In this document: in pieces, positions 52,123 through 58,728 of the stretch
Position numbering within the stretch: position 1 is the first letter of the stretch
How the letters are laid out: each line of letters opens with the position of its first letter
DNA from: Perkinsus olseni
Taxonomy: Eukaryota
Direction: 5' to 3'
Length of the DNA stretch: 64,000 nt
NCBI GenBank assembly: GCA_013115125.1
Contig: JABANN010000001.1
Span: 62,001-126,000, forward strand
The notes under the pieces: generated by a model
The model's input: the letters and a program-made list of their open reading frames with translations, nothing else
What the model was told of the DNA's origin: nothing
Database searches by the model: none
Made by a program: the position numbers and the translations under genes

Positions 52123-54332
52123 ATGCCTGGTAGGAGCGTAAGCATCAGCAGCAGGAGGGTGGTGGAGAGGCCGGTAGCTGCGGTGGTCACTAAAGTGGGC
52201 GGCCGGACTGCCCCATTGGAAGGCAGCGACACGGTCATGAATGTACCAAGTAGGTCGCTTTGCAGCGCTGGCTGCCTCGGCATGGCCGCCCCGATCAGAC
52301 GACCCTTCCCAGCCGACTGTTCTGTCTCCCGGCCACTCGTCAGTACCCGCTCCTTCGTCGAGCCAGAGCCAGCAACTGGCCCATCGAGAAGGCTCCGCTG
52401 TGGCTGAGATCTCGAGAGAGGACACGTGGCGACAACGAGTGCCATTTCGAAACCCGATGGAGATGCACGTCCTCGCTGTGCAAAAGTTGGCCAGCGGAGG
52501 GGGTGAGCTGGGCTGCGGCGGCTCCGCTGCTCCGGATTATGCTGTTGTCTCAGCTCCAGCTGCCGAGGCTAGGACTGGGCGAGTGAATCTTTTGGAGGAG
52601 GTTGACTGGGGCCGAGTCCCTCCTACGTGGGAAGGCCTGAAGCCGACCACTTTGAAGATGGCGGAGAATCTCACAGTCCGACAGATAGCCATACTCCTCA
52701 ACGCGTAGGTTGAAGCTGGCTCTCGGCAGAATTAAAGATACTCTCACCTCCAGATATGCCAAAGCAGGAGTTGCCGACCGGCAGGTGTTCTACACCCTCA
52801 CCCAACAGTTTTCCGCCCGCCTCGGCTCCTCTCCGAAATCCGTCTTCGGCGTCCGTCCCCAGGACGTCGGCCTGGTCGCGCATGCGTGCCAGAAGGTCCA
52901 GTTCAAAAACGAGTTCCTCTTTACAAGGCTCAGGAAAGTGGTGGTCCGCATGGTCAAGCAAAACCGGCAGATATCACCGCAGACGCTATCGCTCATCCTC
53001 ACGGGCTTCGTCAAACTCAAATTCATAGGCGATGGTGAACTGCTGCACAGCCTGGGGACCGCGGCTCTGCGAGAGCTCGACCGCTTCACGATTCGGGACT
53101 CGGCCGTCCTGATGATGACCTTCAGTCAAGCATGTCCGCTGGATGACAGAAGTCGGGACGTCTTCAGTCGAGTCTACCGAGCGCGAGACCGGACTGCCGA
53201 GCGGGAGAGCATGGCAGCTGCGGTGCCGATCATGGTCGCTCTGAGCAACCTTACGGTCTGGCATCCGGAGGTCGTCATGGACCTGCTGCAAGAGGACTAC
53301 GGCGTGGTCGATGCCTTCGCTGCTGCAGTGCCGACCTGCGCCATCGTCCATCTGGCAAACGGAATCCAAGCCCTCGCCACGCTCGTGGCTGGCGGCTTCC
53401 TTCCTGCCTCAATCGGCAGCAGAGCGGTCTTCCGAGCGGCCTCCGATCGGTTATGTGAAGACGGCGGAGCGAAGCTGCCTCAGAGTGCTGTTGTGCAGCT
53501 GACCGCTGGCTTTACCAAACTAGGAGGCCTCGGCTGGCAAGACATCTTCAACCGCCTCCTTGTTGATGCTACTGGGCTCGATCTGCCGTCTGCTGTGGCC
53601 GTGCTCCATGGTCTGGCCGGGCAAAACATCCGTGATGTGTCGTGGGTAGAGCGGGAAATTCTCAATCGACTTGACGAGGCTAAATTAAGAGACCCCCAGA
53701 CTGCGTGTATGCTCCTCTACGGCTTGGCCAGGCTGGGAATGCCAGCTGAAGCCGCTCGGACTTGTCGTCTTGTGAACGAGAGAGTTCTCCGGGGGCTGGG
53801 GGTCCAAGGGCTCAGTAACCTAGTGTATGCTGTTGCCTCGGTTTGGCATGCGTGTGGCCTGAGCATCGAGGAGCAGGAGGCCGCTGCTGCCGTCCTTCTG
53901 ATGGGGTTGGAAAGGCTGTCCATCGTTGGTAGCGAGGAGGACCAGCGACGGTTCTCGATGGAGATAGCCGGCCAGCTCCGAGTCGTTGCCCAGCTATCGA
54001 TGGCCTCACTGGCCGAGGGTATTAGCATGGACTTGCTGCTATGGACAGGTACGCACAGGGAGGTTTGCAGCGTATTTGCCGTCTATCATGAGACGTCCTA
54101 TTCAGGTCGCCTCATCCACTGGTCAGCCTGTCAGAAGCCGAGCGCCGTGAAGTCAAGTCTCCTTCACAAGGAAGTCGCCGACACCATCCGACTCGTCGTC
54201 CTCGACTACTGTCAAGTCGCCGAAGAGGTCCCCGTCACGCCCTACTGGATCGATATTCTCCTCACCTCGTATCATGCTGACATGCTGCCCGATCACGCTC
54301 GACCTTCCTCTGTGTTTCCGAATGTTTTGTGA
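52123..54332 (+). CDS. Helical-repeat organellar RNA-binding protein (RAP/FASTK/HPR-like)
   Basis: Repeats such as PQDVGLVAHA, SPQTLSLILTGFVKL, DPQTACMLLYGLARL and VQGLSNLVYAVA; C-terminal SSLLHKEVADTI...EEVPVTPYWIDILL resembles the start of a RAP domain. Confidence 0.6.
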
Positions 54333-54408
54333 CGTTTCTGAACCCGCGGTGATTTGCTTTGGTACAACGTAGGCTGCTTCTGAGGCATCGCAGGTTGGGG
54401 AGACTGTA

Positions 54409-56536
54409 ATGGCAACCACCGCAGAGTCGACGGCCTCGTCTGGGGGCCCTCCGATCGACACCTTCGCCGGCCCCGCCTTCGGCTTCCTTGCCAACGACCA
54501 CGAGTCGCCGGTCCGAGCCTTCTGTCCGGGCCGGGACAAGACGTGCGTTCATGCCCCGACATGCGTGTCGTGGACCCCAGTAGCTTTTAGGACCTCCTTC
54601 GCTGAGTTCCCAACGGCTGCATCCGCCATCACCGCCATGCGAGAAGGCCTCGACCCTGCTGTGTGGAAGAAGTATCGACTGAAAATCGTCACTACTGTAC
54701 TTCGAGATAAATTCATAAGGCAAGTCTGCTAGTTCTCCCGCATCGCACCAGGTGTCCTCAGGCATCCCGAGCTAGCTGATGAGTTGGTGGCCACGGGTAA
54801 AAGGAGCCTGTTGTTCGACTGTAGCCCGGAGGATTCCGAGGCTCTCGAGGCCCAGGGCTTTCCTTCCGACGAGGGCGTCTTCTGGGGCTGCAGCAGGGAT
54901 ACTGGCTCCCTCAAAGGGTAACCCCGGCCGGTGCGTGACGGCTGTCGAATGCCTTTTGTCCAGTCAGAATCAGTTCGGGCGTATCCTCTCAACCATTCGG
55001 ACCGACATTCAAGACTCAGAGGACGTAGCCCGGCAGCTGTGGCTCCACGCTGTCATGAACGTGGTGAAGCAAGGTGAGTTCAGTAGAGGCCGTATTATCT
55101 GCGGTATCCGCTCTGTAGATACGGCATCGCCCATCCGAGTCACTGAAGTGAAGGAGGGCCGTTCTGTTGCCACCCACAGGGTCGCCAACGCCGTGTGCGT
55201 TATGGGGAAGGTGGAATCGTGCGATGTGAGAGGACTCGCCTATCGCTCATCACCCACTGCCCTTGTGCCAGGTCGTTGCCTTGCACCCATCTACATCGAG
55301 GCATCACGCCATGCTAGTCTATGCCGCAGGGGTTAGGAACCCGACTGACTCGAAGTGGAGGGAGAACACTCTCGACCAAGTACGACGGAGCGCCCTGTCG
55401 GCTACTACCTCATCAGCGCCCGCAGGTCTACGCGCTTGACCTGCACTCGAAGTTCGGCACCTTTGTCGGCGAGAAGGGGGATGTGAAGATGGAGCCCTTC
55501 CTCCCCCAAGTGCTGGGCAAACGAGATCAACTCCGCCTCGGAGCCAGCACCCGACACTATGAAATCAAAGTGGACCACGGGTAAGCATTCACGGGCAGCA
55601 CATGCTTTAACCTCGGAATCGCGAAACACTACAAGATTCGGTGCGAACAGTGGTTCCTCGCAGGGCGGCCTTGGCTGAGCTGAAAAAGATGGAATACAAG
55701 TTGGACAAAGAAATTAGGGATATGGGAGGAAAGATCGACAACCCGTTAAAAGAAGCGGAGGAAGAGCGATCCAAGTCGAGTAAGGCCGTCGTTGGGCTCG
55801 CTGCCGGTCACCTTTTATCAATATCATCTTCTAGTACTTATTTTTCATGTATTATCCATCGTTTTTTCGTATCCCAGTACTGTATAGTACACTATGCTCT
55901 ATTCATTAATGGATAGTAGACAACCACCCACAGGCACGGTGTACATGGGCAACCTCTCCTACACAACTACCAAGGAGAGCATCGAGAAGTTCTTCAAAGA
56001 AGAGGATCTTAAAGTCTGTGGAGTGCGGTTGCCGGGAGGTATCGTCTCTGTCGACTCGCTGCTGCTGTTAGAGTGCTCATCAGGTGAGGACAAAGTGGCT
56101 TCCCGAGGATTCGCCTTCGTCGAGTTTTCTAGAGAGGCGGACATGAGGAACGCTATTGCCTTGCTCGATGGCGCCACTCTCGATACCCGGAAGGTAAACC
56201 CTGTCGACGATTGTTCCCTTTGATGCCGCCTCGCTGTAGATCAGACTGAAAGTAGCAGAAGAACGGCAGCAGAGGCCACGTGATGAGAATAGACGAGATG
56301 ACCGCTCGCCTCGGCGGCGGGGGCCTAGCTTCGATGAGAGGAGCCGCCGTCGGCGGTATAGTCGGAGTCGCAGCCGTGACAGGCGCCGGAGGAGATCCGC
56401 CAGCAGAAGCACGGACCGTAGAGGGCGAAGGAGGAGCTCTAGTGGCAGCGGGAGGCGCAGAGATAGCAGAAGTCGTGACGAAGAGAGTCGGCGGAGTCCG
56501 AGACGCTCATCCCACCGTGATAGCCGCCGTGAGTAG
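54409..56536 (+). CDS. NADAR(YbiA-like)-FHA-coiled coil-RRM-RS domain protein, multi-exon
   Basis: NADAR: FAGPAFGFLANDHESPV ... WKKYRLKIVTTVLRDKFIR/HPELADELVATG ... FWGCSRDTGSLKG/QNQFGRILSTIR. FHA: VMGKVESCD/VVALHPSTSRHHA ... DLHSKFGTFV ... LRLGASTRHY. RRM: VYMGNL, RGFAFVEF. Arg/Ser-rich tail ends ...HRDSRRE*. Confidence 0.8.
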
Positions 56537-56797
56537 TTTCACCGTTTGCGTCATTTCTGAGTTATGTTAATGAGGCGGGGGCAACGCGAACGCTTCGTAA
56601 CGCCGGTCTCGAGAGATTTCTCTAGCAAACGTGTTAAGCTTACTACGGCCTGTCCCGTCCCGAAAGTGTTCTAGACCTTAGCGTGATTACACCCGGCGTG
56701 ATCATCTCCCGTGTGCACGGATCCGGTGAATCAGACAGCTATACAACCAGCAGGTCCCCCAAGCATGGCCGGGAACTGTTGAACTCGATCTTGACAC

Positions 56798-57059: not shown

Positions 57060-58728
57060 TTAGGTATCTTGATCTTCAGTGTTTTTCTTAGTGATTGGGG
57101 CTTCAACGAACCGCATATGCTCCTAAGAAGGGCCCCACTGATGATACCGTCACCTCCTCCTCATCCTACCCGTGTTGCCCAGTTCTTTTTCTCTCCCTTC
57201 CCCAGAGAATCTCCAATAACTTTCTGCATCTCCAAGTTACCAGCCGTTGCGCATTCCACAGCGAAAACAGCTCCCTCTCGGAGTAGTGGTACCTAACGGT
57301 AGGTCCGAAGTCATCGTTCAACTCGAAGCCGAGCATCCAGAGCACGAGAGGGCCACTGATGGCTCACCCGGGGATCCACAATGCAGTGGGAGAGGAGGGT
57401 CGGAATGAGGCGTTCATCACAGTTGATGAGGTAGTCCTGAGCTGCTGGTGAGTTGGCCAGGCAGTTGGCTATGAGGCGGAGGATGGTGGCAGCCGGTATA
57501 TGATCGCAGATGAACTTGAATGCTTCGCTTCTTGAGGACTTGTAGACGTCATCGGGCCGGACTGTGTCTGGCAGCGTCATGTCGTCCTCTCCCAGTAGTT
57601 GCGGGAACCTCACGAAGTGCACACCGCGAAGGATACCGAGGGAAAAGAAGATCCCCGCCGTCTCCAGTGGAGATATCCTATCCCGGTCACGATGCTCGCT
57701 GAGGGCGAGGTGATTGGCCAGGGCGAGCAAGTCGGTCATAACCTGGGCATAGACCTCGGCCGGCCCTTGGGGATCATCGAAGACCTCATAGTAAGCATCA
57801 GCCAGAGGCCCAAGCTCTTCCCTATGGTCCTGCACCATGGCGTTGAGACCTTGTTGGGGGAGATGGCAGACCGCTTCGAAGTAGGCGTAGGCCATCACCA
57901 ACAACGTCGCCACGCAGTCAGCGACCTTCTCGTAGTTTTCCCGATTCACTACTTGCTCCAGTATGTGCAGCAGGAAAGATATCACCGTGGCTTGGCTAGG
58001 CATCGACCTCACATTCACCGGTCCCTCCGCTGAGCCTTGGAAGGTGTCAGTATCAGCATAAGCTCGCATTATGAAGTCCTGTAGGTCCTCAGGCGTCAGC
58101 CTGATCCAAGACTTCACAATATCAGACAGCCTGTCCTGCAGGGTCTCGGTGAGCAGCATGACCGCGAAGTGACTGACATCAACCTCCTCGCCCGGAGCGG
58201 CACCCGAGTTGCCGATGTCATTAGCCAGCGTCAGGTAGAGCAACACGGGAAGACCATCGGGGTAGCACTTCCACAGGTGTCCGAAGTTCAGCAGGAACAG
58301 CCACGCCCGGTCACCTCTCGTGCCGGTACTTGACAGCAGCCAGTACCTGCGGTCCGCCAACTACTACGACAGACCAACACCCATGCGAAGGAAACTCACA
58401 ACTTTTCCGGGCTCCCTCCCAGTTCCTCATAGAGCATCTCCCCGCACTTCTCATTGCCAGTGATGAGCGCCCTCAGAAGCGACACTCTAGCCTTAGTCGG
58501 GGCCTTCACGCACTCCCCTATAACGTCCTCTTCTATGCACAGCCGCCTGACGTTCTCAGCCTCTGGTCTGCTGCACAGATTACAAACAAGCTTGCACGCA
58601 GCCTCCTCACCAGCGACACACGCCGTGACGACCTCAGTGAGAGTATCGCGGTCCTTCAGGAGAGAATCCAACAAAGCTGGATCTGCCTTGCTTCTTTCAA
58701 ACAGTGGTTGTATCTTGTTCTCAGTCAT
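57060..58728 (-). CDS. Ataxin-10-like ARM-repeat protein, multi-exon
   Basis: C-terminal ILRLIANCLANSPAAQDYL...IPTLLSHCIVDP.../PLREGAVFAVECATAGNLEMQKVI matches the Atx10 domain pattern. Confidence 0.7.

Follow-up and report, generated by a model that had tools for sequence, protein, structure and literature searches.

The gene described here lies on the forward strand at 54409..56536 of a stretch of Perkinsus olseni DNA of 64,000 nucleotides (nt), referred to as the window (GenBank assembly GCA_013115125.1, contig JABANN010000001.1, positions 62,001 to 126,000). It makes one mRNA, which encodes a protein composed of a NADAR domain, an FHA domain, a coiled coil, an RRM and an Arg/Ser-rich (RS) tail. 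The gene is an ortholog in a conserved eukaryotic family that has the order NADAR, linker helix, FHA, coiled coil, RRM and Arg/Ser-rich tail. The reading favoured here, with a probability of roughly 0.55, is that this is a conserved family of SR-like RNA-processing adaptors whose Perkinsus member carries a non-catalytic NADAR.

NADAR, FHA and SR-like proteins are each known, and comparison of the sequences suggests that what is new is a conserved NADAR subtype built into an RNA-processing protein. NADARs were recently found to remove ADP-ribose that is linked to guanine or cytidine in DNA and RNA (PMC11833690, PMC12945103). The roles of eukaryotic NADARs are stated in this literature to be unknown, with endogenous ADP-ribosylation of bases in eukaryotes left as an open possibility (PMC11125620, PMC12945103). 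A NADAR wired to a spliceosome-type FHA, an RRM and an RS tail would provide a concrete handle on these roles, and the Tetrahymena ortholog offers a tractable organism.

One spliced mRNA spans the gene

The forward-strand reading frame is carried entire on one spliced molecule in contigs assembled from RNA libraries, with 10 introns removed. The contigs are 1551 nt in runs X3 and X4 and 1579 nt in X1, and cover 54392-56543 (X3, X4) and 54383-56543 (X1), giving an overall extent of 54383..56543. X3 and X4 are on record as RNA-Seq, and X1 is only guessed to be RNA. All three runs that yielded any match span the gene from ATG to stop; the raw-read run X24 yielded none and does not constitute a test. 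Of the 24 public runs listed for the stretch, 20 hold 0.52-0.56 of the sampled words, which is approximately what is expected from exons alone, and 2 of these are on record as RNA.

The joined exons make 1527 nt in frame, encoding 508 amino acids (aa) and a stop. The 11 exons, as defined by the spliced contigs, are 54409-54542, 54591-54719, 54762-54917, 54964-55073, 55119-55225, 55272-55379, 55426-55580, 55664-55779, 55934-56038, 56084-56193 and 56240-56536. Eight of the 10 introns are 42-48 nt long, namely 54543-54590 (48 nt), 54720-54761 (42 nt), 54918-54963 (46 nt), 55074-55118 (45 nt), 55226-55271 (46 nt), 55380-55425 (46 nt), 56039-56083 (45 nt) and 56194-56239 (46 nt), and the remaining two are 83 nt (55581-55663) and 154 nt (55780-55933). 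The 42-nt intron can be placed only as GC..AG within the allowed shifts.

The original prediction, made from the DNA letters, was of in-frame exons on a single transcript. The single transcript is borne out by the contigs of X1, X3 and X4, which cross all 10 introns, and the frame had been read correctly. The supposed first exon had not, as it includes the 48-nt in-frame intron at 54543-54590, and 16 of the residues that had been read are not in the protein.

The joint 55779>55934 decides between one gene and two because it links the coiled-coil exon to the RRM exon, and it is a GT..AG splice seen in the contigs of all three runs. One open frame, 54964-55225, takes in the last part of the NADAR and the first part of the FHA, whether spliced or unspliced. 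The 154-nt intron removed at the deciding joint is the longest and is AT-rich (40% GC). Its predicted fold is no better than that of shuffled sequences (z = -0.08), and it therefore gives no sign of a hosted small RNA; an Rfam scan of 54300-56700 gave no match at E values up to 1, and none for this intron.

The mRNA contigs begin 17-26 nt before the ATG. All three end 7 nt after the stop codon (56537-56543), and in X1 sequencing adapter follows directly after 56543. This end reflects either a very short 3′ untranslated region or an assembly or library effect.

Domains of the encoded protein

A search with the first exon returned five proteins among 102 candidates, including P0002, P0003 and P0005 of P. 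olseni and P0004 of P. chesapeaki. P0002 is an allele of the window product, sharing 329 of 341 residues (96%), and P0003 is identical to the window product at 396 of 406 aligned residues. The full-length database alleles P0002, P0003 and P0004 were used in the Pfam searches, standing in for the spliced product of the window. As single exons, none of the four NADAR-bearing pieces gave a Pfam NADAR match, even at E 10.

The degenerate NADAR (aa 15-158) is encoded by 54451..55018, a segment with three introns inside. Pfam NADAR (PF08719) matches P0002 at 42.5 bits (E 1.1e-10) and P0004 at 43.9 bits, against a cut-off of 35.1, though the match covers only profile positions 62/67-162 of 163. The frame contains F-A-G-P-A-F-G-F-L-A-N (FGFLAN at 54478-54495), K-F-I-R-H-P-E-L...A-T-G at 54709-54774 with an intron inside, L-L-F-D at 54808-54819, V-F-W-G at 54877-54888 and G-Q-N-Q-F-G-R-I-L at 54916-54988. 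An AlphaFold2 model of P0002, built on a 61-row alignment, has a mean predicted local distance difference test score (pLDDT) of 80.1 and a predicted template modelling score of 0.73, with pLDDT above 90 over the NADAR and FHA. When compared by VIA with about 48,000 solved chains, the NADAR part matches 8bau_A, the P. nicotianae NADAR with ADP-ribose (Z 13.0, root mean square deviation 2.7, 123 aa), and 2b3w, E. coli YbiA (Z 12.8, root mean square deviation 2.6, 127 aa). Matches at Z 13.0 and Z 12.8 mean that a NADAR fold is present, and the N-terminus, as modelled, is a genuine homologue with this fold and packs against the FHA. The two are connected by a linker helix, E-D-V-A-R-Q-L-W-L-H-A-V-M-N (55019..55060; helix 233-244 of the P0002 model, pLDDT above 90), and its Trp (W240) is nearly invariant across the family alignment A2.

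The resemblance to the two solved NADARs, 2B3W and 8BAU, extends from fold to detectable sequence homology, with the family profile matching YbiA at E 6e-23. The K-F...T-G, F-W-G and G-Q-N-x-G-R-I-L motifs and the pyrophosphate-binding Trp/Arg pair are common to the NADAR enzymes and the Perkinsus protein. The Perkinsus NADAR differs in being fused to FHA, RRM and RS modules rather than standing alone, and the protein fits none of the four described NADAR enzyme families.

The active site is where the Perkinsus domain departs furthest. NADARs have five core helices (PMC11125620), and the predicted models give the Perkinsus NADAR less than this full set. A control model of P0025, a relative with the full motif set, aligns over 142-143 residues with 8bau_A and 2b3w (Z 16.2-16.7), compared with 123-127 for Perkinsus. 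Between the hairpin and the long helix, the control has three helices (76-82, 88-95 and 100-106) in a gap of 38 residues, and the Perkinsus model has one (128-138) in a gap of 15. About 23 residues carrying the ADP-ribose-binding Glu/Lys helices are missing from the Perkinsus NADAR according to these models.

The residues concerned are known from the P. nicotianae NADAR, in which E43 and E125 hold the distal ribose, K50, R79, W89, R93, D130 and W133 hold the pyrophosphate or adenine, and Y84 stacks on the adenine; the functional set of the E. coli C7 NADAR is E88, K95 and D171 (PMC11543638). In four automatic alignments (Pfam, phmmer to 8bau, hmmalign and BLASTP to Tetrahymena), no Perkinsus counterpart was found for the Glu-x6-Lys helix, and the segment P-T-A-A-S-A-I-T-A-M-R-E-G-L-D-P-A-V-W was placed on the second short helix leading to W89. 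The E43/E88 column in Perkinsus is deleted or Asp (hmmalign, MAFFT) and never Glu in any alignment, and the K50/K95 column is Glu or deleted in the automatic alignments and Arg only in a manual alternative considered below. The counterparts of W89 and R93 are kept (W-K-K-Y-R), and phmmer aligns Y84 and R79 of 8bau to Leu and Ala. Counting from the invariant T-G, Phe (L-L-F) takes the place of the last-strand acid; the residue there is Glu in YbiA, Asp in DarT1-linked NADARs and His in phage NADARs. A 15-residue insertion precedes F-W-G, and the Asp of D-x-x-W-G either corresponds to the D of S-P-E-D, on the far side of this insertion, or has been replaced by Gly. The NADAR had been proposed as a possible pseudo-enzyme from changes at L-V-E and D-x-x-W-G, and it does look like one; the degeneracy was understated, since the Glu/Lys-bearing helices appear to be missing as well. 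Identity between P. olseni and P. chesapeaki is 85% (122/144) over the NADAR, 84% over the FHA and 72% over the RRM, and the degenerate NADAR appears to be kept under constraint in Perkinsus.

The FHA (aa 178-298; 55121..55575) uses the long exon form, 55272-55379, in the RNA contigs and is recognised in P0002 by Pfam PF00498 (E 4.1e-8, 34 bits against a cut-off of 20.7). Its top fold match is kanadaptin, 4h87 (Foldseek E 1.4e-10, VIA Z 16.5), followed in VIA by Arabidopsis DDL (3vpy, Z 16.0), yeast Pml1 (3els, Z 14.9) and NIPP1 (2jpe, Z 13.5). Also among the fold matches are FHA-bearing chains of the human pre-Bact and Bact spliceosomes, 8i0p_X, 7dvq_X and 6ff7_0, which we take to be SNIP1. 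By sequence, phmmer matches the P0002 FHA to kanadaptin (E 1.5e-6), NIPP1 (0.0012) and DDL (0.0057), and the family profile matches NIPP1 at 3e-24, kanadaptin at 2.4e-21 and DDL at 9e-21. The FHA is thus closest, by sequence and by fold, to the spliceosome-linked proteins kanadaptin, NIPP1, DDL/SNIP1 and Pml1, none of which has a NADAR or RRM among the hits seen.

The H-P-S-x-S-R-x-H-A signature and an N-terminal helical extension are common to the Perkinsus FHA and those of this spliceosome-linked class, and kanadaptin has an insertion at the same FHA loop as the RNA-supported long exon of Perkinsus. The domains differ in that G-R is G-K in Perkinsus, and the loop S-T-H-G-T of kanadaptin and NIPP1 (His for Asn) is S-K-F-G-T. 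FHA domains that bind phosphothreonine have a conserved Gly-Arg, a Ser-x-x-His and a loop Asn. In Perkinsus the corresponding residues are G-K at aa 206-207 (M-G-K at 55202), S-R-H-H at 221-224 and S-K-F-G-T at 256-260, so that the Gly, Ser and His are retained. NIPP1 carries a PP1-binding RVxF-type motif after its FHA; no match to [RK][RK]?[VI]x[FW] is present in the 508-aa product, and the Perkinsus protein is therefore not NIPP1.

A coiled-coil linker (aa 299-338; 55576..55778), modelled as long helices at 373-399 and 401-412 of P0002, leads to the RRM (aa 339-416; 55779..56257), which follows the 154-nt intron and is split by the last 45-nt and 46-nt introns. Pfam RRM_1 matches P0003 at E 3.8e-12 and two exon pieces alone at 6.9e-4 and 4e-7. 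The RRM is canonical, with RNP2 V-Y-M-G-N-L at 55939 and RNP1 R-G-F-A-F-V-E-F at 56104. The Arg/Ser-rich tail, defined by composition, occupies 56264..56533 and runs to the TAG at 56534-56536; the last 98 aa include 41 R and 20 S (62% Arg+Ser) and 19 RS/SR dipeptides. Over the RRM plus tail, the family profile matches U1-70K, SR34 and RBMX2, and hundreds of unrelated RRM proteins match the RRM to about the same degree. An interpretation of the FHA and RRM as a fused RES complex (Pml1/SNIP1 with Snu17/RBMX2) was dropped, as RBMX2/RES RRM structures match no better than many RRMs. The motifs quoted in the original prediction are thus all present in the frame, and its naming of a YbiA/NADAR-like N-terminus, a NIPP1/kanadaptin-type FHA, a coiled coil, an RRM and an RS tail agrees with the matches given above.

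A classical SR protein has one or more N-terminal RRMs followed by an RS domain of 50 aa or more. The Perkinsus protein resembles these in having a canonical RRM with RNP1 and RNP2, then a 98-aa RS-rich tail. It differs in that the RRM begins only at residue 339, after the NADAR, FHA and coiled coil, and in that the tail, rich in Arg and with many RD/RE pairs, does not consist of pure RS repeats. Because the RRM is not N-terminal, the protein is termed SR-like here and not a classical SR protein.

Extent and branches of the fused family

A word-indexed NADAR search, with 2 Perkinsus proteins among 620 candidates, had indicated a lineage-restricted fusion, and this was overturned by an exhaustive phmmer search. 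With P0002 as the query against 1.84 billion representatives, 156 hits were obtained at E up to 1e-3, and in dozens of these a single alignment extends from the NADAR across the FHA and into the coil. A NADAR+FHA model of 265 positions was built from the relatives in alignment A2, and the window product matches it at 221.9 bits in one envelope covering positions 2-265 of 265. A single envelope that takes in the FHA and at least the C-terminal half of the NADAR is seen in 99 of the 150 listed representatives, and in 82 of the 150 it is nearly full.

Pfam finds both NADAR and FHA in 37 of 40 proteins, all but P0019, P0029 and P0045, and 28 of the 37 also have the RRM. Among 65 further proteins, 49 have NADAR and FHA (5 of the 49 with NADAR scores just under the cut-off) and 36 of these also have the RRM; four of the 65 have FHA and RRM only and start inside the last helix of the NADAR. 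In a profile search that returned names, both domains were found in 37 of 88 hits. The named members are P0177 of Tetrahymena thermophila ('FHA domain protein (macronuclear)'), P0021 of Pseudocohnilembus persalinus ('SMAD/FHA domain') and P0174 of Euplotes crassus ('FHA domain-containing protein'), and JGI names of family members include 'ribA/ribD-fused uncharacterized protein'. P0002 and Tetrahymena P0177 are collinear in BLASTP, with 31% identity over 269 aa (E 2e-29), and the family sequences inspected all end in Arg/Ser/Asp-rich tails. ESM Atlas gave no usable hit for P0007 or P0033.

The family is therefore already in public databases, under uninformative names. Full-text literature searches found no paper on a NADAR-FHA-RRM architecture, and in the literature searched no function is described for the Tetrahymena, Pseudocohnilembus or Euplotes members; de Souza and Aravind 2012, which lay outside the search and reportedly named NADAR and surveyed its domain contexts, may mention the fusion. 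The fusion is no curiosity of one lineage, as it recurs in a large family that includes the three named ciliates.

A tree was built with FastTree (LG model, midpoint root) from 111 near-full members covering model positions 12-250; P0002, P0003 and P0005 were left out as near-duplicates of the window product. Three clades were distinguished. Clade C has 39 members (support 0.969), clade A has 23 members (support 0.966), with the two Perkinsus sequences sister to the rest, and the ciliate-type clade B has 49 members (support 0.105), including all three named ciliates. Clades A and B together form a branch of 72 members with support 0.961.

The clades differ at the active-site columns, numbered as in 8bau. 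The E43 column is Glu in 37/39 members of clade C, 0/23 of clade A and 0/49 of clade B. At K50, clade C has Lys in 36 and Arg in 2 of the 39, clade A has Gln in 15/23 and clade B has Arg in 45/49. The D130 column is Asp in 34 and Glu in 5 of the 39 in clade C, Asp in 19/23 of clade A and Asn in 40/49 of clade B, and the W133 column is Trp in 37/39, 13/23 and 45/49 of clades C, A and B, respectively. None of the 111 members has an acidic residue at E125, where clade C has Tyr, Phe, His or Ala, clade A mostly Trp and clade B mostly Asn. The fused family is accordingly classed, on its alignment columns, as a distinct NADAR subtype that lacks the class-defining last-strand charge. The branch with all the named alveolates (A+B) has lost the Glu (0/72), and clade C keeps the Glu, Lys, Asp and Trp. 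Such a family constitutes a natural experiment, one clade keeping the catalytic set and the alveolate clade having lost it, yet with the domain constrained.

The Tetrahymena, Pseudocohnilembus and Euplotes proteins share with Perkinsus the order NADAR-FHA-coil-RRM-R/S-rich tail and the loss of the catalytic Glu. They differ in that the ciliate NADARs have the full helix set, with Lys replaced by Arg and Asp by Asn, whereas that of Perkinsus has a deletion and an insertion. The G-K in place of the FHA G-R had been noted; it is present, and is the norm of the family rather than a change in Perkinsus, with Lys at this position in 34/39 members of clade C and 19/23 of clade A.

Five members of clade C (P0046, P0105, P0140, P0091 and P0097) have His at the last-strand position, the residue reported there for phage NADARs (PMC11125620). 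P0041 (591 aa, clade C) has an extra CCCH zinc finger (Pfam zf-CCCH) right after the RRM, a further RNA-binding module. The hits also include multi-NADAR proteins with no FHA (P0019, P0064, P0086, P0095 and P0110), of which one of 4240 aa has seven NADARs, one has three and three have two, an arrangement that recalls the three-NADAR protein SNA-3 of nematodes.

Possible role of the family and flanking reading frames

On the favoured reading, the Perkinsus protein would be a nuclear SR-like adaptor in pre-mRNA processing. The kanadaptin/NIPP1/SNIP1-type FHA would dock it on a spliceosomal partner, phosphorylated or not, and the RRM and RS tail would engage RNA and other RS proteins. In alveolates, the NADAR, rigidly packed on the FHA via the helix with the near-invariant Trp, would serve for binding or as a scaffold and no longer for catalysis. 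Its ancestor was probably an enzyme, which the other branch of the family would have kept intact; the NADAR of clade C may still be an enzyme.

The one experimental precedent that turned up for a NADAR role in splicing is C. elegans SNA-3. It is described as a nematode-only protein with three NADARs, one of them lacking the conserved catalytic residues, and SL1 trans-splicing depends on it (PMC9303266). Spliced-leader trans-splicing occurs in Perkinsus as well as in nematodes (PMC2868825). SNA-3 resembles the Perkinsus protein in having a NADAR without the catalytic residues, and it works in nuclear RNA splicing, the role proposed here for the Perkinsus protein. The two differ in that SNA-3 has three NADARs, is reported from nematodes only and is described with no FHA, RRM or RS part, and the Perkinsus protein has one NADAR and comes from an alveolate. 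The presence of the fused family in ciliates, which to our knowledge do not trans-splice, argues against a role specific to trans-splicing. With SNA-3, the family would provide a second, independent tie between NADAR and nuclear RNA splicing.

Other explanations are less probable. The NADAR could still be enzymatic, an RNA-tethered N-glycosidase or ADP-ribosyl-base hydrolase acting on G- or C-linked ADP-ribose, or on a related ribosyl adduct, in pre-mRNA or small nuclear RNA, with the FHA, RRM and RS parts delivering it to the substrate. This is considered unlikely, given that about 23 residues of the ADP-ribose site are absent from Perkinsus and that in the alignment to 8bau Leu and Ala stand opposite its adenine-stacking Tyr and its pyrophosphate-binding Arg, although the pyrophosphate-contacting Trp and Arg (W-K-K-Y-R, corresponding to W89...R93 of 8bau), the Asp of S-P-E-D and the Trp of F-W-G are kept and clade C retains its Glu, Lys, Asp and Trp in the proportions above. 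Reversal of G- and C-linked ADP-ribosylation, on both RNA and DNA, has been shown for NADARs from each of the four described families (PMC11833690, PMC12945103). Mutation of the E. coli C7 NADAR bears on both sides, as E88A and K95R retain activity in vitro, and D171A and D171N, at the last-strand acid position, abolished efficient hydrolysis (PMC11543638); at that position Perkinsus, judged by the spacing from T-G, has Phe, and all 39/39 members of clade C have an aromatic residue, His or Ala. A role outside splicing is also doubtful. The protein could then serve, for example, DNA-damage signalling, transcription or ribosome biogenesis by recognising phospho marks, ADP-ribose or poly(ADP-ribose), with an RRM and RS tail that bind nucleic acids or condensates in general. 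The modules that bind ADP-ribose or poly(ADP-ribose) indeed include FHA, RRM and RS/RG-rich regions, and the RRM is about equally close to hundreds of unrelated RRM proteins; the closest FHAs are nevertheless the spliceosome-linked ones, and an RRM followed by an RS tail is a hallmark of splicing regulators. Finally, that the fusion is an annotation or assembly artefact joining neighbouring NADAR-FHA and RRM-RS genes is extremely improbable and already contradicted by the GT..AG joint in the contigs of X1, X3 and X4. The public models P0003, P0004 and P0005 are unreliable, merging an upstream open reading frame (ORF), and an in-frame ATG lies within the 154-nt AT-rich gap before the RRM exon, but the NADAR and FHA are in a continuous frame even unspliced, and the domain order recurs in at least 64 Pfam-checked relatives with all three domains, including the three named ciliates.

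Several observations weigh against the adaptor reading itself. The splicing role is deduced from domain types only, and many DNA-damage FHAs (MDC1, Chk2, Rad53 and aprataxin) match the Perkinsus FHA at similar, slightly lower Z. That FHA has Lys for the Arg that binds phosphate and Phe for the loop Asn, so that phosphothreonine reading is not assured, and at the Arg position there is still more variation among the ciliate members. If F-P-T-A-A-S-A-I-T-A-M-R is aligned by hand to Y-P-S-x-E-H-A-x-Q-A-x-K/R, Glu is replaced by Ala and Lys by Arg in place of a deletion; under either alignment the catalytic Glu is gone from the Perkinsus NADAR. The residue after the last-strand Phe is an Asp, which the phmmer sequence alignment, by opening a one-residue gap, pairs with E125 of 8bau. 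As the E88A and K95R mutants stay active in vitro, inactivity of the Perkinsus NADAR is likely but not proven. The tree is midpoint-rooted, its ciliate-type clade B is weakly supported alone (0.105), and organism names in it are confined to Perkinsus and the clade B ciliates. The RNA evidence consists of contigs assembled from two runs on record as RNA-Seq and one guessed to be RNA, and does not show strand, true ends or rare isoforms.

A bolder proposal, which is rather improbable, is that eukaryotic RNA carries an endogenous, as yet undiscovered ribosyl or ADP-ribosyl mark and that the family, tethered to the spliceosome, supplies both its reader and its eraser; clade C would erase the mark, and the alveolates, including Perkinsus, would read it with no hydrolysis. 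Candidate marks would be base-linked ADP-ribose on G or C, or a 5′ end derived from nicotinamide adenine dinucleotide. Clade C, with its Glu, Lys, Asp and Trp, would still remove the mark, and the alveolate pocket would couple it to splice-site choice or, in Perkinsus, to spliced-leader addition. If true, this would parallel the unexplained need for NADAR domains in SNA-3.

The forward-strand ORF upstream of the gene (52689-54332, 547 aa, with its stop at 54332) ends 76 nt before the ATG. It is on a separate X1 contig with a depth of 41.5, compared with 384 for the NADAR-FHA-RRM-RS gene, and no contig bridges 54301-54382. The Perkinsus models P0003, P0004 and P0005 merge this ORF with the gene and, given the separate contigs with nothing across that interval, look wrong. 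P0003 and P0005 also lose 16 NADAR residues through a mispredicted intron, and their NADAR score falls to 17-18 bits. For Perkinsus annotation, this means that the join to the upstream gene in the public models is an error and that the NADAR is incomplete in two of them. A reading of the upstream ORF as a RAP-domain protein was rejected, as it has 0 Pfam families at E up to 0.01. One X1 contig places a 57-nt GT..AG intron in the upstream gene at 54046-54102.

Downstream, a minus-strand open frame at 57311-58360 (349 aa) has no Pfam family at E up to 0.01. A further minus-strand frame, antisense to the gene at 56080-56538 (152 aa), mirrors the RS-coding repeats and is most likely a by-product of low-complexity coding sequence rather than a gene.

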